Positions 6,295 through 36,941 of a stretch of DNA of 64,000 nt are shown here, piece after piece (position 1 is the first letter of the stretch; each line of letters opens with the position of its first letter). The translations under genes and the position numbers were made by a program. The stretch spans positions 36,620-100,619 of the IMG/VR virus record IMGVR_UViG_3300044769_000068. One strand, written 5' to 3'. This DNA comes from a virus. The notes beneath the pieces were generated by a model. That model worked only from the letters and a program-made list of their open reading frames with translations, made no database searches and was not told the origin of the DNA.

Positions 6295-8480
6295 CTCTCC
6301 ATTTCATTCATGTTTTGACCCTTATAAAGTTTGTAACTAAAGTTGGGTCGCAGTAACGTTTGTACATCTGTTTTGAAAACTTCATTCTGAATTAGTGTGG
6401 CTCCCTCTGCAATTATGTCTGGAACAGTGGCGAACACGCCAAATTCTACTTTGGCTGCATCAAGATGTTCATTCGGCACATTAAAGACAGCGGCGTCGAC
6501 ATTAAGGATACATTGCTTTATTTTCAGCTGTCTCGTATTTGCCAAGAATCTAAAGCAGTTCAATACCATAAGATCTGCAGTAGTAGATTGGAATGGAAAA
6601 TTGTGAGCGCTTAAGAACGACTTCCATAGGTTGTCTTTAGTAAGATCGTCCTCACTGAATCTCCGCTTTCTGAAGGATGTCGAGAAAACGCAAGCATTCT
6701 TTTCAAGGTAATCCTTCAGGTTGTTCTTATATTCTAACATCTTTCCATACTTATTATAGAATGCTACCTTATAGCTCTTCACATCTTCAACTCGCACACC
6801 TGCTTCGTTTGCAATAGTCGAATCGCCGGCCAGATTTAGCATGCTTAGAACAAACAGCTTAGCAATGTTTCTTTCCTTTTCGCCTATTTCTCCGCTAAAT
6901 AGTTCTTTTGCGAACCGCATGTAGAAGTCGCCATGTTCATTTAGATCGTTTATCATGTTTTCGTCTTGAACAATTAAAGCGGCTGATCTTAAATCGGCAG
7001 AGTCTAGATCAAGGTATACTAATGTATGCTCTGGATCGGCTTTAAAATGCACAGAACATTTTGAGCCAATTTTCATTCCGTTGAGGAAGGGTTTTCCGTA
7101 GTATAGTCGACCTGAAGTAGCCGAAAATACGAACAATTCAGGGTGCAACTTGCCGTCGCTTGAATCTTGGCACTTCTTTAAGGTGGGCTTTACAATGTTG
7201 TCTAGTTCCCATCCAGAACAAGCAGTTGATCCCTTTGCTAGTCCTTCGCAGTCAACAGTTATTCCATTCCATTCGCTTTCAAGCTTGACAGCCATTATTC
7301 TAGGGACTACTCTAGATGTGAATTTGGCAGCAATTGGGTCGAGCATAAGTTCTTCGTGCAACAATTCTGTAAGGGCATGTTCTCCAGCCGCATCGATAGC
7401 AGCATAAACTAAACTATTTGTGGCAGCTTCCATTATCTGTTCTATTGTATACGTTTTGTAGTTTTCAATGTAGTGGATGTACTTCATAACAAAAGAGTAT
7501 TGCGGGTAGTTAAGCAAGTCTCTAGAAGCAGCTTTAAGATTATAGCCCTCTACTTTTCTATTTTCTGATAAGGCATGAAGAAGCTGCATTCCATCCCATA
7601 TTCTATTGCACTTTAGGAATTCTTTGAAGTCTCTTCCATAGAAGTTGCACAACGAAAAGATGTCAAAGCCACAGTTCCAGGCAATAAATGTTTTGGGCTT
7701 TTCAAACAGATACTTTTCCCAGAGATCCTTTATTTCTTTGGCTTGTCCATTGGCAAGTCCGGCTACAAGACCCGGCAAGCTAAGATTGAACGCGTGGCCT
7801 ACGTTACCTTCAGTAGCCATTGAACCAATTCTTACGCTGTGCTTATTCTTGTCCCATATTTGCAAGCCATTTGTTTCTACGTCTATTGATACTCTAGTCC
7901 AATCGGGCAAGTCGAACATATTGTACAAATAAGCTTTAATTTCGTCGTAGTTGAAGTAAATCTTTGTCCGAGGTGAGAAGCCGTTTTCGACAACATCAAT
8001 TGGCCATTTGTGTCTTTCGGAGACGCTTTTCTGGAGATACGCTTCTCTTACTTCCGATTTGAAGTTGTTAGTGGCATCGACTAATGTTGTCATGAATGAT
8101 TCGAACGCTAGAAAAGTTTCTGGCTTAGACATTGTGAAGTCTATCGGTGGCATGAAAGCAATAAAGTAGTGCTTCTTGTCTCTACGAACGAAATACGAGA
8201 ACTTATGGACGTCCCTTTTAGGGTTGCCCGCCATCTTATCAAATTCGTCTATGTCTCTAAGGATGTGTTTGTATAGATTGCTGCCGAATACAATAAGGAT
8301 CTCGTCGTCCTTGATGTTGTAGCCTCTCATGGAGTCTACTCTATTAGCAACCTTAAGATTGATTTCTAGTTCTTTGTTCTTTTCTTTAATGTCCTTAAAG
8401 ATCTTAACTAGTTTTTCTAGATTCTCTTTCTTTTTAGCTGGCTCACATATAATTGTAATCATTCCTGAACCCGTTTGCAT
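6288..8480 (-). CDS. Family A DNA polymerase-like protein: degenerate UDG-like N-terminus, 3'-5' exonuclease, truncated polymerase domain
   Basis: ExoI IDVETNG, ExoII WNCGFD, ExoIII YAAID; TSGRL, DLDSADLR, RNIAK, NFPFQSTTAD and NVDA map to PolA motifs. Confidence 0.8.
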   Translation of the reverse strand: MQTGSGMITIICEPAKKKENLEKLVKIFKDIKEKNKELEINLKVANRVDSMRGYNIKDDEILIVFGSNLYKHILRDIDEFDKMAGNPKRDVHKFSYFVRRDKKHYFIAFMPPIDFTMSKPETFLAFESFMTTLVDATNNFKSEVREAYLQKSVSERHKWPIDVVENGFSPRTKIYFNYDEIKAYLYNMFDLPDWTRVSIDVETNGLQIWDKNKHSVRIGSMATEGNVGHAFNLSLPGLVAGLANGQAKEIKDLWEKYLFEKPKTFIAWNCGFDIFSLCNFYGRDFKEFLKCNRIWDGMQLLHALSENRKVEGYNLKAASRDLLNYPQYSFVMKYIHYIENYKTYTIEQIMEAATNSLVYAAIDAAGEHALTELLHEELMLDPIAAKFTSRVVPRIMAVKLESEWNGITVDCEGLAKGSTACSGWELDNIVKPTLKKCQDSSDGKLHPELFVFSATSGRLYYGKPFLNGMKIGSKCSVHFKADPEHTLVYLDLDSADLRSAALIVQDENMINDLNEHGDFYMRFAKELFSGEIGEKERNIAKLFVLSMLNLAGDSTIANEAGVRVEDVKSYKVAFYNKYGKMLEYKNNLKDYLEKNACVFSTSFRKRRFSEDDLTKDNLWKSFLSAHNFPFQSTTADLMVLNCFRFLANTRQLKIKQCILNVDAAVFNVPNEHLDAAKVEFGVFATVPDIIAEGATLIQNEVFKTDVQTLLRPNFSYKLYKGQNMNEMERW

Positions 8481-9510
8481 CTAAAACATGCACACTTTCA
8501 AAGTTATAGTTGAAATAGAAGTTTTGAATTTGATTAGTAAAGCCCTTCCCAAATAGCTTTATAGCGCTGTTTGGTCTGATCAAATCTATGAACACCCGCT
8601 GACAGTTGTCTATGTCGTAGGGTAGAATGACTATGTCTGATGATCGCATGTTAACGGTACAAAACATATCGATGCCTTTTGTCATATTTGTTCTAAAATT
8701 GACACCCATACTAGAAGTGCAGGAGCCCTGTGGCGGAACGATGTGAAACCTTCTAGACGTTAGTGGGTCTTCTCCATGGAATTTGATTTCGCTTTCTATC
8801 TTATAGAAGAGACTCGCAAACAAATAGCTATAGAAAGACTTGTAATTGTTGACGTCCATTTCGTATCGGGCTCTAGTTCCCTTTTCCAGCTTGGCCTTGC
8901 GAACGTAGTTTTCGGACTCTTCACATAGACTAGTATTCGTCATGTGCGAGATAGCGCTTTTGCAATCGGCTATTCTGACATTACGGAGTTCCTTGCCTGG
9001 GTAGCCAATGGATGACCCGAACGTCAAGACTAAACTCATCAAATTACGAACTTTATCGTGTATGTCGTATTTAACTATTTCATCAATCCACGTGGCAGCA
9101 TCGTCTACAAGAGTATCGATCCCTTTCGAGGTTGTATCCATCGGCTTAATGAATTTGATTGCACCCAGTTCGTTCTCTATTGCGTCTTTGTAGGCTCTAT
9201 TGACAGTCCGTATGTCAGATAGCTTATGCTCATCGTCACCCTCTTTATTGTATCTTTTCACGATTTCTTTGTCATCAGCATACAATATGATCATGGCGTT
9301 GTTGCACAAGAAATTTATGAGATCCTGCAACCATACAGCATCGTTGTATTCTTTTTCTCCACGAAGACAATTGTACATCATCCGAGTCATGATGCTTCTA
9401 TCGGACACAAAGTAGCGCTTGCTGTAGGGATACTTGTGTAGAAGGTTCTTTTGGAGGGTCGATTTACCCGTCTTGTCTCCGCCTTCTATGACTATGTTGG
9501 GAGTATACAT
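8443..9510 (-). CDS. dNMP kinase fused to a thymidylate-synthase-fold domain (dNMP hydroxymethylase/methylase-like)
   Basis: N-terminal IEGGDKTGKST and SDRS; C-terminal ELRNV, SRRF, GSCTSS, MRSSDIVILPYD and SVHV. Confidence 0.78.
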   Translation of the reverse strand: MYTPNIVIEGGDKTGKSTLQKNLLHKYPYSKRYFVSDRSIMTRMMYNCLRGEKEYNDAVWLQDLINFLCNNAMIILYADDKEIVKRYNKEGDDEHKLSDIRTVNRAYKDAIENELGAIKFIKPMDTTSKGIDTLVDDAATWIDEIVKYDIHDKVRNLMSLVLTFGSSIGYPGKELRNVRIADCKSAISHMTNTSLCEESENYVRKAKLEKGTRARYEMDVNNYKSFYSYLFASLFYKIESEIKFHGEDPLTSRRFHIVPPQGSCTSSMGVNFRTNMTKGIDMFCTVNMRSSDIVILPYDIDNCQRVFIDLIRPNSAIKLFGKGFTNQIQNFYFNYNFESVHVLDANGFRNDYNYM

Positions 9511-9511
9511 A

Positions 9512-12500
9512 TTACCTCGAGATCTTATCGATTAGTTTAAGTTGTCTCAGCTGATTGTAAGAATTGGAGCGCTGGAGTTTGCCGATATACAAATTGTTCG
9601 TATCCATTATATCAATTTTCTGATCGCCATCTTGTATTTCTTTATCACCCCAGTAGTAAACACGGGACATAGATGAAATTCCATCCGATAGCCCAACAAC
9701 GTAATACGGCTTGCCCTTCTTAGATTTCTTCTTTTCGACAGTAGAGATTCTGAAGACAGCAGCTAATTCACCCTCATTTTCAAGATCGACAACATCTTCA
9801 AGCATCCGCAACTTAAAGTCAGGATATTTCTCTTTGATACGATCTCGTTGGCCTACGAAATAGGTGACTTCTGTAAAACTGACATTCATGAGCTCTATCT
9901 CGTTGGCGATAATATCAGAGAGACTCCAAGACACTGGATCTTCCTTGTATTTTCTAATCTTGACGAATTCGTTATACATGTCTGCCCTAGATACTCCGCC
10001 CGCAATAGAATCCAAAGCTCCCGACTGGATAAGTGCAACGATAACTCTTTTGTTTTTGAGCTGCTTGTGATCCGAGTTAATAAAGTCATTAATTCCGGTG
10101 AAGGGTCTGCGTCGTATAATTTCTGCAGCAGCATCGGGAGTTATTCCTTTCACAAATGTTAGTCCGAATCTGATATTTCCATCTTTATCAATGGAGAATT
10201 CAAAGTCTGATTCGTTGACATCGACTGGTAGAATTTTAACCTTATCTCGTTTGATGAACTTTCCTTCTGATTCATAATAGATCGCACTAGTCTGGATGCG
10301 AGAGATATACTTTGCGATAGTTGATGTCCCATACTTGTCTTCTTTTGATCGAGCAGTGTTATTAAGCAGCGCAGTATAGAACTCTATTCCATAGTGAGCC
10401 TTAAGCCACAATTCGCGGAATGAAGTATACGTATATGAGTCAGAATGACTTTTGTTGAACGCATATCTTGAAAAGGCTCGGATTTGTTCCCAAAGCTCTT
10501 TTGCGACCTCCGCTGGCATCTTCTTGCTTGCGTTAGTAACGAACTTGTGTTCCCACGAGTCAACTCTTTTGAGTCTGGCAGTTTCGTATTTAGTTGACCT
10601 CTCATATTTTACGAGGTCTTTTCTTGACTTGTTGATTTCAATCGGATCAAATTCACCGAGCTCTTTGAAAAGGCGCATGAAGTCTTCTTGATAAACAACA
10701 ATGCCATAAGTGCCTTTGAGATAATCGGCGTAGCTTTCGTGTGTAAGATCACGCCAGTTTCCTGCGGCTTTTCTCTTTGCAAATTCAACGTTCATTCCCA
10801 TGTCCAGAGGTCCCGGGCGGATAATGGCGTTGATGGCTGAAAGATCGTCAAAGCATTCTGGCTTGACATCAAGAATAGTCTTAAGGGCTAGATTAGATTC
10901 AAACTGAAACACTCCAAAGAGATCTCCCTTTCTGGCTAAGGCGTACGCTTCTTTTGAGTCAATATCGATTTTATCCCAGTCAATGTCCACTTTGTGTCGG
11001 CTGTTAATAAGACGCACGGTGTCATTAACAACGGCCAAATTATTAAGTCCAAGTATATCAAACTTAACAAATCCTTGACCAGTAAGTTCATGATAGTCTC
11101 CACCTTCTGTGTTGGCTGTAACGATAAATTCTTTAGATCTGATAAGTGGGATCCAGTCGTAGATTGTGACTCCAGATACTACTACGCCTGCCGCGTGTCT
11201 ACCAGTTGCCTTGATAGAGTTGCGGAGACGCTTAAACAATGTTTCTACATTAGGATTCTGTTCAAAAAACTTCTTAACCTTTGGGAAGTGCGACAACAGA
11301 TAATCATACGGCATGTTGTCTAGTTGTTCTTTCTTTCCTTCGGTTGTGTAGATAGTAAATGGAAGATCTTTTGTTATCTCATTAACTGTCTGGTAGTCGA
11401 GGTTGTAGATTCGTGAGGCGTCTTTAATGCAACCTTTTACCTTGCCAATGTGATAGTTTCCAATCGTGGCTACCTTATCGGCGCCATATTTGTCCACAAG
11501 ATATTGCTTGACCTCGTCACGCACCGCGGGCGAAAAATCGATATCGACGTCTGGAAGGTCTTTTCTGCCTTCATCAAGAAACCGTTCAAACAACAAGCCA
11601 TGTTTAATCGGATCGACATCTGTGATTTCTAGCAAGTAGTTAATAAGAGAACCTGCCGCCGAACCTCTGCCTGCGCCTACTTCATAGCGACCAAATTTCT
11701 GTTTAGTCCACTTGATCATGTCTTCTAGAATGAGGAAGTAGTCTACGAAGCCTAATTTGATAATAATATCATACTCATGTCTGCAACGCTGGCGATATAC
11801 TTCATTTTTGCTGAAGCCTTTGACGACAAGAGCGTCCGCTACTTTCTGATACAAAACTCTTGCGGCGTCTTCATAAAGCTTAGGGATCTTGAGGCTTGTA
11901 TCTAGTTGGAAGCTGTCTACTTTTGAGAAGACTTCATACGATCCGTTTATGGCCGCAGCTACGGCTTCTTTTTCGTCTGCTGGAGGGTTATCTCCGAACC
12001 ATCGTCCTTCTTTCCAGTCCTTTATGATCTGATCGAACGTCTTAAGATAGAGGTCCTTTACAACAAACTCCCACAGCTTTTCGTTTTCATTGTCCGCCTG
12101 ATCCTCTTCTGACACTTCTTCCTCTGATGGTTCTTTTTCCTTTTCTTCTGTGTACGACTTCTTTGTTTGAAGCAACAGAATAGCTTCATGCACCTTCTGG
12201 TCGTTCGGATAGAGGTAGTGAGCGTCCGTTGTTACTATCGGAGTGACTCCCATCTCCTTTGCAATAGCCCAAAGTTTTGGATTCAATCTCCACTGATGAG
12301 AATAGTCCATCGACATCAGTTCGATGTAGAAATTGTCACCAAATTCGTCTTTGTACTTTTTCACGTATGCTCTGGCTTCGTCCATCTTATCATGTTCTAA
12401 TAGACGGTTGAGCTCTCCTCCCGCGCATGCAGTCGAAACTATAATGCCCTCTTTGTTTTCTGACAACAACTTAAAGTCGATAAGAGGGAACCGATAGAAC

Positions 12501-13495
12501 GATTCGATAAATGACAGCGAAGTGATTTTGAATAGGTTCTTAAGCCCTGTGTAGTTCTTGGCGATGAGAAGAATGTGATGTCTAGGATTGCCGTGAATCT
12601 TGCGTTGTTCAACTGCGCCGTCTTCTTTGCTACCAATGAATGGCATGAGAGCAGCTCTATCAGCAATCATGTATGCTTCAGTCCCAAAAATTGGCTTGAT
12701 GCCAACTTTTCTGGCGGCTTCGTATTGCTTAAAGAAAACGGAGATGTTGCCATGGTTGGTAAGCGATACAGCAGGCGATTTGTGTTTGAGAGCCCATATG
12801 ATATGTTCTTCCGCGGTTCCAATTCCATCTCGGATAGAAAATTCATTGTGGACATGCAAGTTTACGAAATTCTTGACTTTGATCTTTTTGATTAATTCTT
12901 TGAGATGCGAAAAGTTGTCGCTGGCACCTACGCCGCCCTTTCTAGCAAAGAACGAAGGATGATAGGCTCTAGCAATTGTGTAGTTCCCATTCTTGACAGG
13001 GCCTGCGTAATGATCGAAGGCCAATCCAAAGATGTTGGAAACTGTTTCGCCTAAACATATGATAAGTTCGGGATCGACTATTTCAAGTTCTCTTACGAAC
13101 TTTTGAGAGATGCAAGTAGGTAAAACCTTTAGATCGATTTTGTTGTCTTCAGTTGAGCACTTCTGAATATTTGTAATGTAAACTGTTTCGAAAGAAAGAC
13201 CTACTTCTGCTAGCATTTCTTTCATCATATCATAATGGTTGCTGTCTTCTGGCCCGAACACGTGATTGCCTCGGCGATTATGTGAAGGATTCATTCCTAC
13301 TAACATAACACGCGCTCGCGGATAGCCGCTGGGCTTAACGAACTCTTTATTACATTCTAATTTGAGAAGTGGGCAGGCTTGGCATTCAACCGACGAAGTG
13401 TCTTCTATTGCGTCAACTATGTCAGCAAAATTTGAATCAATTTCTATTGGTTGTACTGCGTAACTAACTCCCGATATTGCTATTGCTTTCGTCAT
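9512..13495 (-). CDS. dnaE: DNA polymerase III alpha subunit with N-terminal family-4 uracil-DNA-glycosylase-like domain
   Basis: PHP (HVHNEFS..DG, TDAHY), GRGSAAGSL, PDVDIDF, GRHAAGVV, KFDILGL, FNKSHS; N-terminal CQAC..ITNIQKC..C..YHPS. Confidence 0.95.
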   Translation of the reverse strand: MTKAIAISGVSYAVQPIEIDSNFADIVDAIEDTSSVECQACPLLKLECNKEFVKPSGYPRARVMLVGMNPSHNRRGNHVFGPEDSNHYDMMKEMLAEVGLSFETVYITNIQKCSTEDNKIDLKVLPTCISQKFVRELEIVDPELIICLGETVSNIFGLAFDHYAGPVKNGNYTIARAYHPSFFARKGGVGASDNFSHLKELIKKIKVKNFVNLHVHNEFSIRDGIGTAEEHIIWALKHKSPAVSLTNHGNISVFFKQYEAARKVGIKPIFGTEAYMIADRAALMPFIGSKEDGAVEQRKIHGNPRHHILLIAKNYTGLKNLFKITSLSFIESFYRFPLIDFKLLSENKEGIIVSTACAGGELNRLLEHDKMDEARAYVKKYKDEFGDNFYIELMSMDYSHQWRLNPKLWAIAKEMGVTPIVTTDAHYLYPNDQKVHEAILLLQTKKSYTEEKEKEPSEEEVSEEDQADNENEKLWEFVVKDLYLKTFDQIIKDWKEGRWFGDNPPADEKEAVAAAINGSYEVFSKVDSFQLDTSLKIPKLYEDAARVLYQKVADALVVKGFSKNEVYRQRCRHEYDIIIKLGFVDYFLILEDMIKWTKQKFGRYEVGAGRGSAAGSLINYLLEITDVDPIKHGLLFERFLDEGRKDLPDVDIDFSPAVRDEVKQYLVDKYGADKVATIGNYHIGKVKGCIKDASRIYNLDYQTVNEITKDLPFTIYTTEGKKEQLDNMPYDYLLSHFPKVKKFFEQNPNVETLFKRLRNSIKATGRHAAGVVVSGVTIYDWIPLIRSKEFIVTANTEGGDYHELTGQGFVKFDILGLNNLAVVNDTVRLINSRHKVDIDWDKIDIDSKEAYALARKGDLFGVFQFESNLALKTILDVKPECFDDLSAINAIIRPGPLDMGMNVEFAKRKAAGNWRDLTHESYADYLKGTYGIVVYQEDFMRLFKELGEFDPIEINKSRKDLVKYERSTKYETARLKRVDSWEHKFVTNASKKMPAEVAKELWEQIRAFSRYAFNKSHSDSYTYTSFRELWLKAHYGIEFYTALLNNTARSKEDKYGTSTIAKYISRIQTSAIYYESEGKFIKRDKVKILPVDVNESDFEFSIDKDGNIRFGLTFVKGITPDAAAEIIRRRPFTGINDFINSDHKQLKNKRVIVALIQSGALDSIAGGVSRADMYNEFVKIRKYKEDPVSWSLSDIIANEIELMNVSFTEVTYFVGQRDRIKEKYPDFKLRMLEDVVDLENEGELAAVFRISTVEKKKSKKGKPYYVVGLSDGISSMSRVYYWGDKEIQDGDQKIDIMDTNNLYIGKLQRSNSYNQLRQLKLIDKISR

Positions 13496-14504
13496 CTGTA
13501 ATTTCCTTTATGAATGAGATTGCTTCCTGTAGGTTGTCTACGGGCTTGCATTCCTCAACGCTTTGCCATCCGCCATCGATATCATATTTGTTCGTTTCGT
13601 TTCTTACGTAAATGTTGCATACGTTAGGACGTTCAGCGGTATTAATAAGATTATATACATTATCTTCGATAAAGTACACCTCTTTGTTATTGAATCGATC
13701 GAAAAAGTACTTTTTCTCACCGAGGTCTGTGAAATGAATCATGTCTACCCATTGACTCATTCCTCTGTTGAACAACCACTCAACCGTATACATATACAGA
13801 ATAGGGTAAGTTTTGACGGGTCTATTGGTGAGAAGAGATACTATCCCTTTTTTGTGACAAATACGAAGAAGGTCTCTTGCGTTATCTACAGCGGGCAAAA
13901 TCATTTTAAATCCACAAAGTCGATATTCTTCTTTGAGTTCTTTATAGAGGTCTATGTTAGCACTTCTCCACGTGCAAAAGTCTTGAAACGTCTCAAACTT
14001 TCCGATGCCAATTTTATCTCCAAACCACGTTCTATATGCAAGCCCAATATCAGCTAATACGCCATCTATATCGATAATGAAAGTATACTGAGCGCTCTTG
14101 AATTTGTCGCTGTTCATGAAAAGCCGCTGATTGAATTTCTGGTCTATAGTCTTGTTTTTCATGTTTATTTTGCGGACTAACTCATCATAACTGATGTCAA
14201 ATTCGTGACAGACATTGAACGCGTATTTCATAATGTCCACTACAGCGTCAGCCGCTTCTACTTTTTGTAGAAGAAGAGAGTTAGCTTTGTGCTCTTTTGA
14301 AGGGTCCCAATCGAGAGTGTTCATGACATCAGTAACGTTCTTGTTGATGCCGATGCAATAATCCTTTATTCTATCGACATGCGTCTTGTTAGCGTATTCT
14401 ACTTGATTTATTTTGTCGAAGAAAACTTTTTGAAGATCATACAGATTTTTCATTCTTCTTCCCATTAAACTTTCTTGTATAGTTGTGAGCCCAATGGATA
14501 ACAT
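13464..14504 (-). CDS. Dimeric dUTPase/dCTPase-like (all-alpha NTP pyrophosphatase) domain fused to a HAD 5'-nucleotidase-like domain; probable start 14453
   Basis: N-terminal LDW....H, AVVDIMKY, KN..IDQK; C-terminal IDIDGVLAD, LTNRP, FIEDN. Confidence 0.72.
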   Translation of the reverse strand: MLSIGLTTIQESLMGRRMKNLYDLQKVFFDKINQVEYANKTHVDRIKDYCIGINKNVTDVMNTLDWDPSKEHKANSLLLQKVEAADAVVDIMKYAFNVCHEFDISYDELVRKINMKNKTIDQKFNQRLFMNSDKFKSAQYTFIIDIDGVLADIGLAYRTWFGDKIGIGKFETFQDFCTWRSANIDLYKELKEEYRLCGFKMILPAVDNARDLLRICHKKGIVSLLTNRPVKTYPILYMYTVEWLFNRGMSQWVDMIHFTDLGEKKYFFDRFNNKEVYFIEDNVYNLINTAERPNVCNIYVRNETNKYDIDGGWQSVEECKPVDNLQEAISFIKEITDDESNSNIGS

Positions 14505-15393
14505 CCTCAGTCTTTATGGAGTGATTCATTTGAGCATAGCGTCCCACTAACTTTATAGAACCAAGCTCTCTAAGCTTCAAGCTTCTTGATATTTGAGTAG
14601 CTGTTTTGATGCTATCCAATACCCATTCTCCGTAGATAGCAAGAAACGCTTCTGGAGTTTTTGTTTCATACACCCATTTGTCTAGTTCTGGTACATACGT
14701 TTTGCGGTGCCAAGGATCAGTAACACTGTAAATGTAATCGAACTGTCCTCTGCCCTTTTCGTCAACAAGAAAGAAATTCATGAGGTCTGGAGTTGTTGAG
14801 ATCTTAACTGTCACAGAAGTGTTGGACAACATCCCAGTTAAAGCGGGCAAAGGAATAGTTGATATGATATTGTCTCCGTAGAAAACGTCTTTATCCGTTG
14901 TCACTTTTCTATGTGAGATGTTCTTTATGTTAGCTATTATAATATGGTTGCTATCAGATTTTCCTGCTAAATCCAAACAGCGCTTAAGAAGTGATTTGCC
15001 CAATGCTACTTGAGAAACTTCAAACGCTGTGAAACTAGACTTCCCACCGCCGGTTAAATGTGATGATTCTGTTCCATTAGTTCCGTGTGCTTTGAAGGCA
15101 TATTTGTTCTTAAAGTCGTCGGTGGCAAAATTGCGAACGTCGTCGTTAATCTTATAGCCGATGAAGACTTCTCTTGTTTTAGTAGGAAACCCTAACCTAC
15201 GAAGTAAGGCTTCAGTGTCCTTGTTTTGGTGCAGGAATCTAGGGCCAAGTGGAAACTTTGTGTTAGTCTGGCTTGCGATGTTGTTCGTTATCACAAGGTT
15301 TCTGGTTCTAGTTGATTCTGCAAGGTAATGAAAGACTGTTAGTCCGGCAATACCTGATCCAAGGATCACATTGTCGTAGTTAGGGTTGGCCAT
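14437..15393 (-). CDS. FAD-dependent oxidoreductase, UDP-galactopyranose-mutase-like architecture
   Basis: ILGSGIAG dinucleotide-binding motif, LGPRFLH, IISTIPL, C-terminal VGRYAQMNH. Confidence 0.75.
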   Translation of the reverse strand: MANPNYDNVILGSGIAGLTVFHYLAESTRTRNLVITNNIASQTNTKFPLGPRFLHQNKDTEALLRRLGFPTKTREVFIGYKINDDVRNFATDDFKNKYAFKAHGTNGTESSHLTGGGKSSFTAFEVSQVALGKSLLKRCLDLAGKSDSNHIIIANIKNISHRKVTTDKDVFYGDNIISTIPLPALTGMLSNTSVTVKISTTPDLMNFFLVDEKGRGQFDYIYSVTDPWHRKTYVPELDKWVYETKTPEAFLAIYGEWVLDSIKTATQISRSLKLRELGSIKLVGRYAQMNHSIKTEDVIHWAHNYTRKFNGKKNEKSV

Positions 15394-16466
15394 TATTTCC
15401 TCGCATCGAATGCGTTGTCACCAAAGATAGCAAACAACAGGTCGTCCACACTCTGGTAGGCGTTGTTAAGTATGAATTCCTCGTCGAATAGAGCTTTGTC
15501 TTTATTGCTCAATTTATCGTAATCATTTTCTCCGTATTTAATCCACTCTGTAGGTCCTGGCATCTTAAACCCATGCTCTGCAAGCTCTTCATAGCTAGAG
15601 CAGCTCACATTAAATTCTGAATATTGTTCTTTAGTCGGCCATCTGCCACAGCAAGCAAATAGTGAACTAAAGTATTTTGTCATTCCTTCGGGACCTTCGT
15701 GATAGATACATCTCTTTGCACCATCGCATGCAGGCCGCAAATAGTTTGCTAATAGGGGGAATTTCCGTCCCACAAGCTCTCGAAGAGCAATATGGAGAGC
15801 AACTATCGAGCTTTCCTCGCAAGCCATTAGTCTCCGGCTGCACTGGCCCTTCAAGGCGAGATAGTTCTGTGTAAAGACGTATGAGTGATTTACGCTCATC
15901 GGGAGGAAAGCTCTCCCACTCTGCCATGACCCCTGACCAATCGAGATCGCTGATTCGTATAGGTCTTTCGTTGCTCTTATCCATTTTTCTACCTCGTATG
16001 CGAAAGCCGCATCCGTTTCCATTCTTTTGCAAACGTCCGGGTAAAATAGGAAATCTGCATCAAGTTTGTTGTTATCTCTTGTTCCAATAGAGGCGAAGGC
16101 GGTTCCGATTCGGACTCTTGCATGCTGGTCAAAAGTATGTCGTGGTGTCCCATTAACTTCGAAAGTGAATTGGACAGCTTCAGCAGCTTGAGGTAGGGTG
16201 TTTCCTGTGAGGACTGCAAGTACGATGCGATATCTGTTCTCAGGAGTAAGTCGTTCCCATTTTCCAGTTGATCCGGTTTCATTGTCGCCCCACGTCGCTG
16301 CAGCCATCGAAGCGATTGCACGGTACGGATTCTTTGTGCAATCATTCATCGCAACATACAGCGCATCCAGTGAATTTTTCCAACTATATGTCTTCTTGGG
16401 AGCCTGAGATGGCAAGGTTCCCATTGCTTCTCTCATGTTGTCTACTTGATCTTTATAGTCACTCAT
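15393..16466 (-). CDS. Divergent ThyX-family flavoprotein
   Basis: FTFEVNGTPRHTFDQHARVRIGTAFASIGTRD, GRAFLP and SRRL align with the canonical ThyX at 18527; several catalytic positions differ. Confidence 0.75.
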   Translation of the reverse strand: MSDYKDQVDNMREAMGTLPSQAPKKTYSWKNSLDALYVAMNDCTKNPYRAIASMAAATWGDNETGSTGKWERLTPENRYRIVLAVLTGNTLPQAAEAVQFTFEVNGTPRHTFDQHARVRIGTAFASIGTRDNNKLDADFLFYPDVCKRMETDAAFAYEVEKWIRATKDLYESAISIGQGSWQSGRAFLPMSVNHSYVFTQNYLALKGQCSRRLMACEESSIVALHIALRELVGRKFPLLANYLRPACDGAKRCIYHEGPEGMTKYFSSLFACCGRWPTKEQYSEFNVSCSSYEELAEHGFKMPGPTEWIKYGENDYDKLSNKDKALFDEEFILNNAYQSVDDLLFAIFGDNAFDARK

Positions 16467-16821
16467 GCTTAGCTCCTAATCTTGCTGTAATGTATTCTTT
16501 AATTGGTATCCCTGTATTCGGCACTACTTGAACGCATCGGTCATCCCACAGCTCTATCATATCATAATCTTTTGTGGCTGTCACTTCAAGTTTAGGGAGT
16601 CCGTGTTTCGTAAGCCACGCATGAATTTCGGGAATTTGTGAATCGTCAAAGCCCGCTCGGGCAGTGAAGATCTTTACTTTGTTACCATTAGAAAGCCATT
16701 CTTTTACTCTTCGCATCATTTCAGGAATAGGCTTGCCAATTTTGCCATCACCCCAGCCGTGATATTCGGCTAAAGTACCATCAAGGTCTACGCCAATCCA
16801 GGCGATTCTTTCACTACTCAT
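16459..16821 (-). CDS. Small HAD-family phosphatase
   Basis: GVDLDGTLA, IFTAR and LWDDR motifs. Confidence 0.8.
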   Translation of the reverse strand: MSSERIAWIGVDLDGTLAEYHGWGDGKIGKPIPEMMRRVKEWLSNGNKVKIFTARAGFDDSQIPEIHAWLTKHGLPKLEVTATKDYDMIELWDDRCVQVVPNTGIPIKEYITARLGAKHE

Positions 16822-30452: not shown

Positions 30453-31250
30453 TTACTTCTCCTTATTGCGGATATATTTATTCCATGCTGAAAGGTTTTC
30501 TCTTATAGTTCTAGGGTACAGCCAATCGATATCGATTATTTGAAATTTGGGCTGATCTGTTCGTCCTACGATATTGTCTAGCTTTTCGAATCTCGCTTCA
30601 ATGCCGGCTCTAACTTCAGGCGTATCGTATTCTGTGTGACAGAAATTGTTGAACTTCTCTTTGACTTTTTCGACACCGCCAAGCCAACCGAAATGATTTC
30701 CGCAATTAGAAAGATGATACGCATTAGCGTGGAAAGTTCCATCATTTCTATTAGGCCCAGTTCGCAAATAGCTCAAGCTGGGATTTTCACTATATATTCG
30801 TCCTGTTACTGCATACGGATGAGGGCATATGTAGCCCGGCTGCTGGACATTTATATAATAAAAGAACAGCCGCATATCTAGTCTTACTAATCCATGGCGC
30901 CGTGTTTCGGCTACTATTCTAGGGATATTCTCCCCGTTGATTATTTCGTCTATATCTGTTACTATAAGGACGTCATCATTTTCTATGTAGAATGGCCTTG
31001 CAGCAATATCACGTTGCCGTACTTCTTTATCCCATCGCCCCGGGCAATCAGCAAAGTCTTCTTCGTGCGCCACAATATACTTTACTTTGTTCCCGTATTT
31101 CCAAGCAGGGAAAGAGAGCGCTTTCGCTTTACCCGAATGAGTCACTTTAGACTCAACTACAACTATTCTGTCGACATACGGAGATTCTTCTTTTATCTTC
31201 AAATCGAGAAGATCTATTTCGTCGTAAAACATTGTCATGCTATAAATCAT
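30453..31250 (-). CDS. Glycosyltransferase family 17 (beta-1,4-GlcNAc transferase-like)
   Basis: FYDEIDLL, VDRIVVVES..THSGK.K, E..QR, VTDIDEI, HFGW. Confidence 0.85.
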   Translation of the reverse strand: MIYSMTMFYDEIDLLDLKIKEESPYVDRIVVVESKVTHSGKAKALSFPAWKYGNKVKYIVAHEEDFADCPGRWDKEVRQRDIAARPFYIENDDVLIVTDIDEIINGENIPRIVAETRRHGLVRLDMRLFFYYINVQQPGYICPHPYAVTGRIYSENPSLSYLRTGPNRNDGTFHANAYHLSNCGNHFGWLGGVEKVKEKFNNFCHTEYDTPEVRAGIEARFEKLDNIVGRTDQPKFQIIDIDWLYPRTIRENLSAWNKYIRNKEK

Positions 31251-32965: not shown

Positions 32966-34750
32966 TTACTTCTCCGTTGTTATGTATTTCATCCAATCAA
33001 TAGTCTCGGGATCACCCACCGTGATATTGTGATCTAGTGGGTGCAAATAGTTGTCATCGTATAACAATTTTTGTCTATCGTAAACTGAGGGCTTTTGCTG
33101 CGTATCCGAAACACCAATCCCAAAGGCATCTTTATTAACAAATGAAAAGGACGAACTGTTTCTCTCATTCATTAAGACGAAACCGCCTACAGCAGCTGCA
33201 ATTATACTGTCATCGTGTTTTCCTTCGGAAGCCTGTGGTTTCCCGTTGGGACCGTAAACAAATGACAGCGCTTGATCGAGCCATGTCTTACTGTAAATTA
33301 CTAGCATATTGTTGCGAAGTGCTTCTGCGGCGGTGTCTAAGATAAGAGGCCGAGTAACACTGCTTGATACAAAACCTGGCTTACCATCTTTAGCAAAGTA
33401 AACACTCGGATATTTGTCAAGAATCTTAATTTGATCTTGTAAATAACCGTTTGTGGCCCAATAATTAAGCAGGTGCCCGTGGTTGTTTCTTTCTATAACT
33501 AGTTTTGGGAAGTTGTATTGAGCGCACATATGATACAACAACTTGTAGAATTTTGGCATAGTTAGCTTGTCGGCTATTTCAGCACAAAACTCCACAAATA
33601 TTGGATCTTTATTTAGTCGTAAGATGTATGCAGTTGAGTTGTCTGATTGCGGGTTGCCTTCTGCAGGGTCGGCACATGCTACGTACGTCTCTCCTTGTTT
33701 GAATTCTTTGTAGATAGTAATCTTGTCGTCCATTTGTTTCTTAGACCAACCTGGCTCTATGATGACGCCTTGGTTGTTCTTCTTATCCCAAGTCTTGCCT
33801 TGTTCGTTCCATAAAATTATCGACTTGATGATTTTGGCATCAAAGAACGGTCTACCAGATGAGATAAAGCAAGTAGCATCATCTTCTGGATATTCTTGGA
33901 CAAACTTGTCTTTCAGCGAGGCTTGCTTAGATCTTCTCCAAGCTATTTGCTCGTGAGAAAGATGATGAACGTTGATCATTAATTTTTCATCATCGGTAAG
34001 AGTCTCAATGATATATTGTTCTTCCGATTTTTCGAGCGGGTAAAAATACTCTGGATGATCGAACCATCTATAGAAGTGAGGATACGGAATCTGATTTAGT
34101 TTTCTATCTAGAGCGCTAGTATTCTTAGCGTTAGTATAGTCTGTATGGAAGTGGTTGTAGCCATTAGCCGTCGTTTCATAGATGATGATACCACTCTTAG
34201 GCACTGTTTCAAGCAACGAAGGCATTAATTCTTCAGGACGCTCCCAGAAAGCATATTCAGAAGCGTGCAACAAGTTAATAGTTGTGCCTCGGCCAAAGCC
34301 AACTGATCCAGCTGTACCAATGAAAATTTTGCTGCCGATGTCTTCAAACACAATTTCTCTCTTTGAAGAATATCTCTTAGCGGGTCTAATTTCATCGGGA
34401 AGCTTTTCATACATCAGCTTGGTGATTTCAAAGATTCTAGCAGTAGATTCGGCATCGTGAGCAATAATTGCAGCTGTAGTGTTCGGAACTAAAATACATT
34501 CCGTCAAGAACAAGGCGCATATTAATGTGGTGAAACCTAACTGGCGGGGCTTGAGGATGATATGCCTGTCTACACCTTCGTTGTTTAACTCGACGTACTT
34601 AGAATAGAACATCTTCTGAATAGGGTTGAATACGAAAGGGACGATATAGCGGTCTTTGTCCTTAATACTTATAAATGTTTCTATAAAGTATTGATGGTCG
34701 GAGAGCGCTTTCTGAACTATCTCGTCGGGATTCAATGCGGCTTCGTTCAT
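32966..34750 (-). CDS. terL: Terminase large subunit
   Basis: ILKPRQLGFTT, LHASE, ETTANG, DPAEG, ERNNHG and HDD. Confidence 0.93.
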   Translation of the reverse strand: MNEAALNPDEIVQKALSDHQYFIETFISIKDKDRYIVPFVFNPIQKMFYSKYVELNNEGVDRHIILKPRQLGFTTLICALFLTECILVPNTTAAIIAHDAESTARIFEITKLMYEKLPDEIRPAKRYSSKREIVFEDIGSKIFIGTAGSVGFGRGTTINLLHASEYAFWERPEELMPSLLETVPKSGIIIYETTANGYNHFHTDYTNAKNTSALDRKLNQIPYPHFYRWFDHPEYFYPLEKSEEQYIIETLTDDEKLMINVHHLSHEQIAWRRSKQASLKDKFVQEYPEDDATCFISSGRPFFDAKIIKSIILWNEQGKTWDKKNNQGVIIEPGWSKKQMDDKITIYKEFKQGETYVACADPAEGNPQSDNSTAYILRLNKDPIFVEFCAEIADKLTMPKFYKLLYHMCAQYNFPKLVIERNNHGHLLNYWATNGYLQDQIKILDKYPSVYFAKDGKPGFVSSSVTRPLILDTAAEALRNNMLVIYSKTWLDQALSFVYGPNGKPQASEGKHDDSIIAAAVGGFVLMNERNSSSFSFVNKDAFGIGVSDTQQKPSVYDRQKLLYDDNYLHPLDHNITVGDPETIDWMKYITTEK

Positions 34751-35124
34751 ATCAACATCAGCTTTCTACTTAATTTTACGGGATCATTAATCTCATGCTC
34801 CCAAATTATGATGACTCTCCATCCACACCGCTCAAAACGACTAATTCGTTGCATCGTTTTGTACAGCGGCTCGTTTTTGTGCCAATAATCACCGTACACT
34901 TCAACAACAAGTTTCCGAGTTTTATTAATGAAATCCGGTCTAAGGTTATCGATCTTGAAGGATCCGTCTCCGGTAAAAACAAAGGCTGAACCAAGAACTT
35001 GTTGTAGTTTCCGTTCCAAGCCGTTGGGCCCTGCTCTTCTAGGCCGTCTTTTGATTTGGCTGAGTTGACGTCTGGCTCGAAGAATCTTTTCAATGTCATA
35101 CTCGTACCTATAATCTTTAACCAC
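34747..35124 (-). CDS. Vsr/DUF559-like endonuclease
   Basis: RPDF, VVEVYGDYWH, GWRVIIIWEHE. Confidence 0.82.
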   Translation of the reverse strand: MVKDYRYEYDIEKILRARRQLSQIKRRPRRAGPNGLERKLQQVLGSAFVFTGDGSFKIDNLRPDFINKTRKLVVEVYGDYWHKNEPLYKTMQRISRFERCGWRVIIIWEHEINDPVKLSRKLMLI

Positions 35125-35987: not shown

Positions 35988-36941
35988 ATGTCGGAAGAAC
36001 TCAATGACCTATTTTCTTTTTATATCGAAAACATCGAATTTAAAGAAGAACAGCTCGACAAAGCTTTCATTGATCAATACAAGCGCATCGACTTAGATAA
36101 GTCGACTGGTCGAATTGTTGCAGGTTACGCATCAACACCCGATTTAGATTCTGACGGAGAGACTATTGTTCAGAAGGGCTTAGACATATCATATTATCAG
36201 AAGTCTGGCTGGCTGAATTATATGCATAACAACAATCCGTCCCATGTAATCGGTATTCCTATTGAGTCTTATATTGATAGCAAGGGTTTCTACACAAAAG
36301 CGATGCTGCTTAATAACGATATGGCGAATGATGTTTGGAAACTCGAACAACAGCTCAAGTCTTTAGGCTATCCCCGTCACTTAGGTTTCTCGATAGAAGG
36401 CAAAGTAGTTGGCCGATCTGCCGTAAATAAATCAAAAATCATCAAGGCTAAAGTCACGAATGTTGCTATTACGCACATTCCCGTGAATACATTTGCGACG
36501 TTTGAAACAGTCTCGAAGTCTTTTGTTCCTCCGACTTACGACGAAGTGGTCGGCTATATAATGAAAGACCTCCCGTTAAAGAAAGACTTGGCGGCATTGA
36601 GTGCCTCACCCGGTCTCAATGCTGGTAGTAGTTTTGGAAGCGACAACTATACTGGTGGCGAAGTTTTGAGAACAGAGTCACTAGAAGGCGCAAATGCAAA
36701 CGCTTACAAAGGGAAAGCAGTCACAGGGAACGATAGAACGTCCGAACAAGAACTTGATGAACGTCTCAACTCAGCCTACCGTAGTGCTCACAAATCCCAT
36801 TCAGAATTAATAACTTTACTAAAGGCTGTCCACCCTGCAGCCTCTGAAAACTTGTTAGAAGAGATCACTAATCTCGTCTATAAGGCAAAGGGTATCGACA
36901 ATTTTATCAAAATAATTAGCGAATCAGAGGTATTAAAGTAA
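35988..36941 (+). CDS. Prohead maturation protease (HK97-type)
   Basis: AGYASTPDLDSDGE, NYMH, LGFSIEG, VAITHIPVN; start set at ATG 35988 behind GAAGGTGG. Confidence 0.88.
   Translation: MSEELNDLFSFYIENIEFKEEQLDKAFIDQYKRIDLDKSTGRIVAGYASTPDLDSDGETIVQKGLDISYYQKSGWLNYMHNNNPSHVIGIPIESYIDSKGFYTKAMLLNNDMANDVWKLEQQLKSLGYPRHLGFSIEGKVVGRSAVNKSKIIKAKVTNVAITHIPVNTFATFETVSKSFVPPTYDEVVGYIMKDLPLKKDLAALSASPGLNAGSSFGSDNYTGGEVLRTESLEGANANAYKGKAVTGNDRTSEQELDERLNSAYRSAHKSHSELITLLKAVHPAASENLLEEITNLVYKAKGIDNFIKIISESEVLK

Follow-up and report, generated by a model that had tools for sequence, protein, structure and literature searches.

Uracil-DNA glycosylase (UDG) domains joined to replicative DNA polymerases have been described in several groups of phages. 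In the SPO1-like phages and in SP15-like phages such as YerA41 and phiLo, whose genomes are T-modified, an N-terminal UDG is carried on a family A polymerase (PolA), and modification genes lie nearby (PMC13697223, PMC10201439). The SP15-like UDG-PolA excises deoxyuridine (dU) from the template ahead of the active site or fork and spares 5-substituted deoxythymidine (dT). The resulting apurinic/apyrimidinic (AP) site is bypassed with deoxyadenosine (dA), and a phage PolX and ligase complete the repair (PMC13697223). The logic proposed for these systems is that the unmodified base is removed during replication while the modified base is spared. In the N4-like UDG-PolA proteins (cluster 17), the polymerase-fused UDG is decayed, showing that such a domain can lose its catalytic residues (PMC10201439). 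Here we describe a UDG domain fused to a polymerase of a different family, the C-family DnaE. It is encoded by gene P0001 in a 64,000-nucleotide stretch of viral DNA, positions 36,620 to 100,619 of the IMG/VR record IMGVR_UViG_3300044769_000068. This stretch is called the window below, and coordinates are those of the window unless a locus is named. The whole record is a 116-kb virus sequence with an estimated completeness of 71%.

The gene in the window follows the same plan as the SPO1-like and SP15-like fusions and shares their proposed logic, but the parts differ. The polymerase is a C-family DnaE with a PHP domain, and the UDG abuts this domain, whereas in the SPO1-like and SP15-like proteins it lies between the exonuclease and polymerase domains. 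Motif A of the glycosylase is of an Asn type (GMNPS), in contrast to the Glu type of phiLo and YerA41 (E53). The adjoining cassette is based on a ThyX-like enzyme instead of a ThyA-type hydroxymethylase. While polymerase-fused UDGs are already known, the C-family polymerase, the Asn-type iron-sulfur (Fe-S) UDG clade and the associated gene module are new, and no paper describing a UDG-DnaE fusion was found in the literature searched. The precedent of UDG domains on SPO1-type phage polymerases, invoked in an earlier note on this DNA, is established (PMC10201439, PMC13697223).

The UDG-DnaE fusion and its glycosylase domain

P0001 is a single unbroken open reading frame (ORF) that carries both the UDG domain and the polymerase, and its start codon is validated by an N-terminal MTK..I.I conserved among orthologues. 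Pfam recognizes UDG (residues 58-203, E 6e-13), PHP (213-395), DNA_pol3_alpha (562-816), the finger domain (819-972) and HHH_6 (1085-1171), and the PHROGs match is a phage DNA polymerase (E 4.5e-253). With PHP, palm, fingers and helix-hairpin-helix (HhH) domains, and 660.9 bits against the NCBIfam C-family superfamily model TIGR00594 (cut-off 434), the protein is a C-family DnaE. Because it scores below every NCBIfam bacterial equivalog cut-off, it is not an orthologue of the bacterial DnaE1. It shares nine PHP ligands, the palm Asp motifs, fingers and HhH with the DnaE1 proteins of M. tuberculosis (5lew) and T. aquaticus (2hpi), but identity is only about 30%, TNH stands in place of TDH, an N-terminal UDG is present and the gene is phage-encoded. 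At least 24 metagenomic orthologues have the same fusion, as do several lineages that branch more deeply. Among 50,697 GenBank phage records searched by tblastn, no UDG-DnaE fusion was found: the best DnaE match begins at residue 209, and UDG matches reach at most 32% identity.

The gene and the features of its N-terminal domain are listed here; A1 denotes the 20-sequence orthologue alignment and A3 a 41-sequence alignment of the wider clade.

9512..13495 (-), UDG-DnaE fusion gene P0001, 1327 aa (ORF list and translation; Pfam, PHROG and NCBIfam matches)
12881..13495 (-), N-terminal Fe-S UDG-fold domain, residues 1-205, including a clade-specific beta-hairpin/helix extension at 1-30 (Pfam, AlphaFold2 (AF2), A1)
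13373..13384 (-), C38-Q-A-C41, the first two predicted Fe-S cluster Cys (aligned to CxxC of 1ui0, 4zbx and 1vk2; invariant in A1 and A3)
13274..13297 (-), motif A, G67-M-N69-P-S71-H-N-R74, Asn type (aligned to GE(A/G)PG of family 4 and GINPG of E. coli Mug)
13256..13258 (-), F80 of the invariant F80-G81, in a V/I-F-G motif (one column off the Phe of family-4 PFVG in HMMER)
13157..13177 (-), I107-T-N109-I-Q-K-C113, the TN-motif Asn and third cluster Cys (aligned to ITNIVKC of 1ui0; T108, N109, K112 and C113 invariant)
13112..13114 (-), C128, the fourth cluster Cys (aligned to a Cys of 1ui0; invariant in A1 and A3)
12953..12964 (-), motif B, Y178-H179-P-S181 (aligned to HPS of 1vk2 and NPS of Mug; H179 and P180 invariant)

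The earlier note had proposed a DnaE fused to an Fe-S UDG-fold domain, and the ORF translation, Pfam, HMMER alignments and structural modeling agree with it. Translation also confirms the place of every motif that it listed (GMNPSHNR, ITN, YHPS, the four Cys and TNHG). The domain scores 49.5 bits against Pfam PF03167 (cut-off 24.3), which makes it a member of the UDG superfamily, and it is the sole match to this superfamily in the 116-kb record. An AF2 model of residues 1-212 has a predicted local distance difference test (pLDDT) score of 84. Its best Foldseek matches are the family-4 UDG structures 1ui1 and 1ui0 (E 6e-12, TM-score 0.67-0.74), followed by UdgX, family 5 and TDG. The last helix of the domain (196-204) leads into the first PHP strand (FVNLHVH from 210) through a junction of about 5 residues, almost without a linker.

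In sequence as well as fold, family 4 UdgA, represented by T. thermophilus 1ui0, T. maritima 1vk2 and S. tokodaii 4zbx, is the best match. The four Cys, xTNxxKC, the Phe and HPS are shared. C38, C41, C113 and C128 all fall on Cys of 1ui0, and the first three of these also on Cys of 4zbx and 1vk2, so that the ligand set of a predicted 4Fe-4S cluster is present together with the motif B His of HP(A/S). However, GMNPS falls on GEAPG or GEGPG in the HMMER alignments to these solved structures, with Met replacing the catalytic Glu at position 2 of GE(A/G)PG, as in all orthologues, and Asn at position 3. The curated family-4 model TIGR00758 gives 48.0 bits, far under its cut-off of 125.3, and the N-terminal extension and DnaE fusion are further differences from UdgA. 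Orthologous UDG domains are 50-67% identical to that of P0001, yet N69, P70, S71, R74, F80, G81, T108, N109, K112, H179, P180, the four Cys and TNHGN are invariant in all 20. At this level of divergence, such conservation of the motifs is not due to chance. From its alignment position, F80 is the putative base-stacking Phe.

The Asn-type motif extends well beyond the fusion proteins. An exhaustive phmmer search found 1462 relatives of the UDG domain (E <= 0.001), and most of the best 150 of these read [GAS]-x-N-P-[SA]-x-x-R where family 4 has GE(A/G)PG, and they also have the four Cys, xTNxxKCS and HPS. Most xNPS relatives are free-standing proteins 170-230 aa long, among them P0092, which reads FIGMNPSHNR. 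In 41 diverse members of the clade, some of them standalone proteins of 170-200 aa, the C, N, P, K, C and H residues are invariant or nearly so. Ten clade representatives and the members of their clusters are of metagenome origin only and have no accession; the sole meaningful source name among them is 'uracil-DNA glycosylase family 4'. A quick maximum-likelihood tree of UDG domains places the xNPS proteins largely apart from the Glu type (GExPG), with weak deep support. The literature searched yielded nothing relevant on an 'NPS' UDG motif.

Motif A reads GINPG in family 2, GMNPG in family 3 and GE(A/G)PG in family 4 (PMC4787834). When a profile of the 41 clade members was aligned with E. coli Mug in hhalign, the clade Asn fell on the Asn of GINPG and HPS on NPS (probability 77%, E 2e-5). 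GMNPS is also identical to the GMNPG of SMUG1 at four of five positions, the last residue being Ser and not Gly. Mug/TDG and SMUG1 also have an Asn at position 3, where that of the window's domain is a putative catalytic residue; they lack an Fe-S cluster, while the window's domain has the cluster Cys and has family 4, UdgX and family 5 as its nearest relatives; TDG is more distant (Foldseek E about 1e-5, versus 6e-12 for family 4). The Ser that ends motif A and the conserved Arg that follows are likewise unlike Mug/TDG and SMUG1. Judged from these alignments, GMNPS is not a decayed family-4 site but the hallmark of a large and unnamed clade of Fe-S proteins with the UDG fold, known from metagenomes only. 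The domain is a family-4-like Fe-S scaffold with a Mug/SMUG-type Asn, in which the catalytic Glu at position 2 has been swapped for the Asn at position 3. The altered base pocket suspected in the earlier note therefore stands insofar as the pocket is not that of family 4, but it is not a one-off alteration.

Association with a ThyX-like gene module and its loss

The genes that co-occur with the fusion are the following.

15393..16466 (-), long ThyX-like enzyme, 357 aa, the marker gene of the module (Pfam Thy1 E 7.5e-12; co-occurrence surveys)
14437..15393 (-), X318, weak FAD/NAD Rossmann signature, in the conserved trio (surveys)
13464..14504 (-), X346, a co-varying neighbor (distant homologues are dUTPase_2 + HAD/NT5C fusions)
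8443..9510 (-), K355, kinase-like, between DnaE and PolA; absent in UDG-less relatives (locus comparison)

In the window and its relatives the gene order is ribonucleotide reductase (RNR) - ThyX - dCMP deaminase - Tmk - ThyX-like - X318 - X346 - UDG-DnaE - K355 - PolA-like - DnaB. By tblastn across all fetched loci, the ThyX-like gene, X318, X346 and K355 are present at every UDG-fused locus with a long enough flank. At the loci of a UDG-less clade (L005, L006/L011, L012/L017 and L024), the other synteny is kept, while the UDG, the ThyX-like gene, X346 and K355 are missing.

Two surveys of IMG/VR extend this association. In the survey seeded with the UDG, the ThyX-like gene was found at at least 12, and X346 at at least 14, of about 17 distinct loci outside the main clade. 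The polymerase partner varied among fused or adjacent DnaE, fused or adjacent PolA, and PolB. The survey seeded with the ThyX-like gene recovered 72 loci, almost all of which carry X346 and X318. These loci contain 36 UDG ORFs. Position 3 is Asn in 33 of them, the remainder being Ser/Cys derivatives of the Asn type, and in no case is position 2 Glu. Every one of the 36 scores higher on the Asn-type than on the Glu-type hidden Markov model. The ThyX-like gene has no match at E <= 1e-10 in the 50,697 GenBank phage records, which include the Bacillus phages CP-51 and JL, whose annotated DNA polymerase gene matches the UDG domain. The Glu-type control consists of these two results, the zero count of Glu-type UDGs at ThyX-like loci and the lack of a ThyX-like gene in GenBank phages. 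A further IMG/VR scan with the DnaE core gave nothing with a single-protein query and needed an alignment query. The Asn-type UDG clade is tied to modification-type genes, both as standalone proteins and in fusions to DnaE or PolA. A link between UDG-DnaE fusions and modification genes, for which the earlier note had called for a survey, was found in both IMG/VR surveys, in the co-occurrence at loci and in the co-loss.

The phylogeny of the polymerases indicates how the UDG-less state arose. Asn-type UDGs are fused to DnaE in other lineages as well (P0023, P0025, P0026, P0027, P0029 and P0071) and are found on the C-terminus of PolA in P0055 and P0113. In the UDG tree, every domain fused to DnaE belongs to a single subclade (Shimodaira-Hasegawa-like approximate likelihood ratio test (SH-aLRT) 84). 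In the DnaE tree, the main fused clade and the UDG-less clade (P0174-P0178, 1109-1128 aa) are joined with a support of 0.998. The outgroups of this pair are all fused (supports 1.0 and 0.991), indicating that the UDG-less state is a secondary loss. Because the main fused clade has little support as a monophyletic group (0.12), the claim is limited to the UDG-less clade lying inside a set of fused lineages. For a large group of uncultured phages, the UDG-DnaE fusion is the ancestral state, from which identifiable sub-lineages have departed by loss or decay of the domain. In a 'mid' DnaE clade the fused domain decays: Asn changes to Ser or Cys, P0179 has no motif A left, and in P0181 erosion is close to complete. 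Decay of the kind known from the N4-like UDG-PolA proteins (PMC10201439) is seen in the related DnaEs P0179-P0182, P0026 and P0071, whereas the window's clade keeps every pocket residue.

Several side observations concern these genes and lineages. The UDG-less loci L005, L006, L011, L012, L017 and L024 form a natural minus-cassette comparison set. P0179, P0180, P0181 and P0182 (loci L088, L090 and L095) hold UDG remnants at graded stages of decay, from LSPS through no motif A to almost nothing. At L075:7861-11330 and L079:7766-14616, a UDG-like ORF lies between two partial-DnaE ORFs, and the DnaE appears split around the UDG. Inteins, seen as Hint or intein-splicing matches, interrupt the DnaE and the ThyX-like gene in several relatives (L003:14253-15698; L062:14807-16795; P0029, P0184 and P0200; and the 1643-aa DnaE of the P0270 contig).

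X346 itself has no Pfam match, and its 26%-identical homologues adjoin distant UDG-DnaE genes (L003:7386-8291 and L004:1265-2248). These homologues combine an all-alpha dUTPase_2 (MazG-like) domain with an HAD/NT5C 5'-nucleotidase domain, an arrangement that would suit the clearing of a canonical dNTP/dNMP pool. A 120-aa ORF adjoining the ThyX-like gene (16459-16821, (-)) has PHROGs matches to phosphoheptose isomerase and polynucleotide kinase (E 7e-12 and 9e-8). In a PolB-type phage (L055:11354-15226), an Asn-type UDG is accompanied by a ThyX-like gene, 50% identical to that of the window, and a 159-aa Thymidylat_synt fragment. At L054:9151-11238, TAGT (PF20691) and DUF5131 genes, instead of the ThyX-like trio, flank P0022, a standalone Asn-type UDG, and these surroundings may represent a different modification context. 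Elsewhere in the window, the interval from the replication block to the portal/terminase genes holds a glycosyltransferase family 17-like gene (30453-31250, (-); E 3.4e-12), whose target could be either DNA or the cell envelope. A small ORF resembling DUF559 / REase_MTES_1575 endonucleases (34747-35124, (-)) adjoins the large terminase gene.

Proposed function and competing explanations

Based on this evidence, we lean, with confidence slightly above even, toward P0001 being a replicative C-family polymerase with a tethered Asn-type Fe-S glycosylase that acts on a uracil-ring base and spares a base made by the cassette. The glycosylase domain probably polices which pyrimidine base is allowed in the phage DNA. 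The retained Phe, the Asn of the TN motif and the His of HPS are presumably the residues that stack on and read the uracil ring in UDG structures, so a 2,4-dioxopyrimidine substrate would be expected. The domain would flip out, and probably excise, a uracil-ring base that is 'wrong' for the phage. The likeliest target is plain uracil, with a 5-substituted uracil as the alternative, and the base made by the cassette of ThyX-like enzyme, dUTPase_2-HAD protein, flavoprotein and kinase would be spared. The architecture, the conservation, membership in the clade, the gene association, the co-loss and the intact PHP ligands are shown by the data, while catalysis itself, its substrate and the DNA strand scanned are matters that we infer; by analogy with the SP15-like UDG-PolA, base surveillance would be coupled to replication. 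For the steps after excision, genes for a FEN-like 5'-3' exonuclease, the PolA-like polymerase and an ATP-dependent DNA ligase (G000:C1:14199-14741, outside the window) are present in the record, whereas searches of its 116 kb, estimated to be 71% complete, gave no match to Endo IV, Exo III or a trimeric dUTPase. A resemblance of the PHP site to Endo IV has been noted (PMC5636811), and processing of the AP site in cis by this Endo IV-like site is conceivable as pure inference.

Several points weigh against this account. The catalytic Glu of family 4 is absent, and Asn-type UDGs are slow enzymes, so the activity might be weak or nil. Since the UDG is joined to the PHP end of DnaE, the geometry of the PolA fusions is not simply transferable. 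The phage keeps a canonical ThyX as well, which suggests that thymine is probably not excluded from its DNA. At roughly half of the ThyX-like loci, no UDG was seen within a distance of 10 kb. The co-loss of UDG, ThyX-like gene, X346 and K355 is a single evolutionary event. Finally, some loci with a decayed UDG, such as L088, keep the ThyX-like cassette, indicating that the cassette does not strictly need a fused active UDG.

The competing explanation that survives best is that the domain is a non-catalytic module for DNA binding, processivity or base sensing, in parallel with the decayed UDG of N4-like PolA or the poxvirus D4/E4 proteins. The missing family-4 Glu speaks for it, as does the decay of the domain in the related mid clade while the polymerase persists. 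The junction of about 5 residues to PHP suggests a fixed structural role, and Czernecki et al. have proposed a processivity role for inactive UDG-PolA domains. However, the pocket residues are invariant in the window's clade, and the same residues are conserved in free-standing proteins of 170-200 aa, which cannot be polymerase domains. In addition, an Asn occupies the site of the catalytic Asn of Mug. With these points in view, a non-catalytic role is unlikely, if still worth serious attention.

A bolder version of base policing may also be considered. The domain would then represent a new UDG family that enforces or protects a pyrimidine derived from the ThyX-like enzyme by excising the canonical or precursor base (U, T, or a 5-substituted U that the host Ung cannot remove), and the PHP domain would process the AP site in cis. 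If true, glycosylase, AP-site processing, proofreading and synthesis would reside in one polypeptide. As a whole, this combination is doubtful.

P0001 could also be explained by ordinary uracil repair, incidentally fused to the replicase and without a functional link to base modification, with the neighboring nucleotide genes being the usual content of a replication module. UDG, ThyX, dCMP deaminase and RNR genes are indeed common in such modules of phages, and a co-loss that amounts to one event fits this explanation too. It does not sit well with the recurrence of the ThyX-like/X346/X318 trio beside DnaE, PolA and PolB partners. Nor does it accord with the UDGs at ThyX-like loci, which are all of the Asn type or its Ser/Cys derivatives and never of the Glu type, or with the absence of the ThyX-like gene from the GenBank phage records. 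We regard ordinary repair as improbable.

A further explanation concerns the polymerase half of the protein, whose features are as follows.

12206..12868 (-), PHP domain with nine metal ligands (alignments to the Taq, Mtb and Gka polymerases)
12749..12760 (-), T-N247-H-G (246-249), a variant of TDHG that marks certain lineages (of the N247-H248 pair, only H248 is a metal ligand)
9983..11812 (-), polymerase core (palm/fingers 562-972) and HhH 1085-1171 (Pfam, motif positions)

The earlier note had suggested that the change of TDHG to TNHG weakens the PHP exonuclease and that the neighboring PolA-like exonuclease makes up for it. The Asp of TDH is widely conserved (78 of 125 DnaEs sampled), and the PolA-like gene always follows DnaE. 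In such polymerases, the metal ligands of PHP comprise five His, three Asp/Glu and one Cys, and mutation of D23 or D226 abolishes activity (PMC5636811). In P0001, alignment to 2hpi, 5lew and the Geobacillus polymerase shows all nine to be intact: H214, H216, D223, H248, E273, H307, C357, D424 and H426. As there are only three acidic ligands, which correspond to D223, E273 and D424, N247 is not a ligand. The HHD-HEHCDH signature is present in 124 of the 125 sampled DnaEs, and TNH in 45 of them, including many without a UDG, while the UDG-DnaE P0029 has TDH. The polymerase motifs PDVDIDF (at 648) and KFDILG (at 811) are invariant in alignment A2; we take them to bear the catalytic Asp triad of DnaE. 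Both the PHP proofreading site and the polymerase site are, as read from these alignments, intact. Compensation by the PolA-like protein is thereby left without a basis; its gene is conserved beside UDG-less DnaEs as well, and Pfam and PDB sequence searches did not detect a 3'-5' exonuclease domain in it. Neither part of the suggestion is borne out, and a weakened PHP exonuclease with compensation is very improbable.

A suicide protein like UdgX, which would cross-link covalently to AP-DNA, was rejected and is scarcely credible: UdgX structures are the second-best fold matches, but the R-loop insertion (KRRIH) and the His are both missing between C113 and C128, the motif A Glu (GEQPG) that in UdgX activates the nucleophile H109, or the attacking water once H109 is replaced (PMC10359453), is also missing, and the NCBIfam UdgX model TIGR03914 scores 30.5 against a cut-off of 190.

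Significance

The UDG clade marks a widespread module, composed of a long ThyX-like enzyme, a dUTPase_2-HAD protein and a flavoprotein, that no GenBank phage record carries. Being unnamed, known from metagenomes only and a marker of this module, the clade offers a practical way to look for a DNA base modification that is probably new, and to test it. A glycosylase of unusual specificity, useful for the mapping of modified bases, might also come from it. To date, uracil surveillance tethered to a polymerase has been demonstrated in phages with family A enzymes only; in the phage described here, the candidate for such a role is a C-family DnaE with a different putative catalytic motif in its glycosylase domain.

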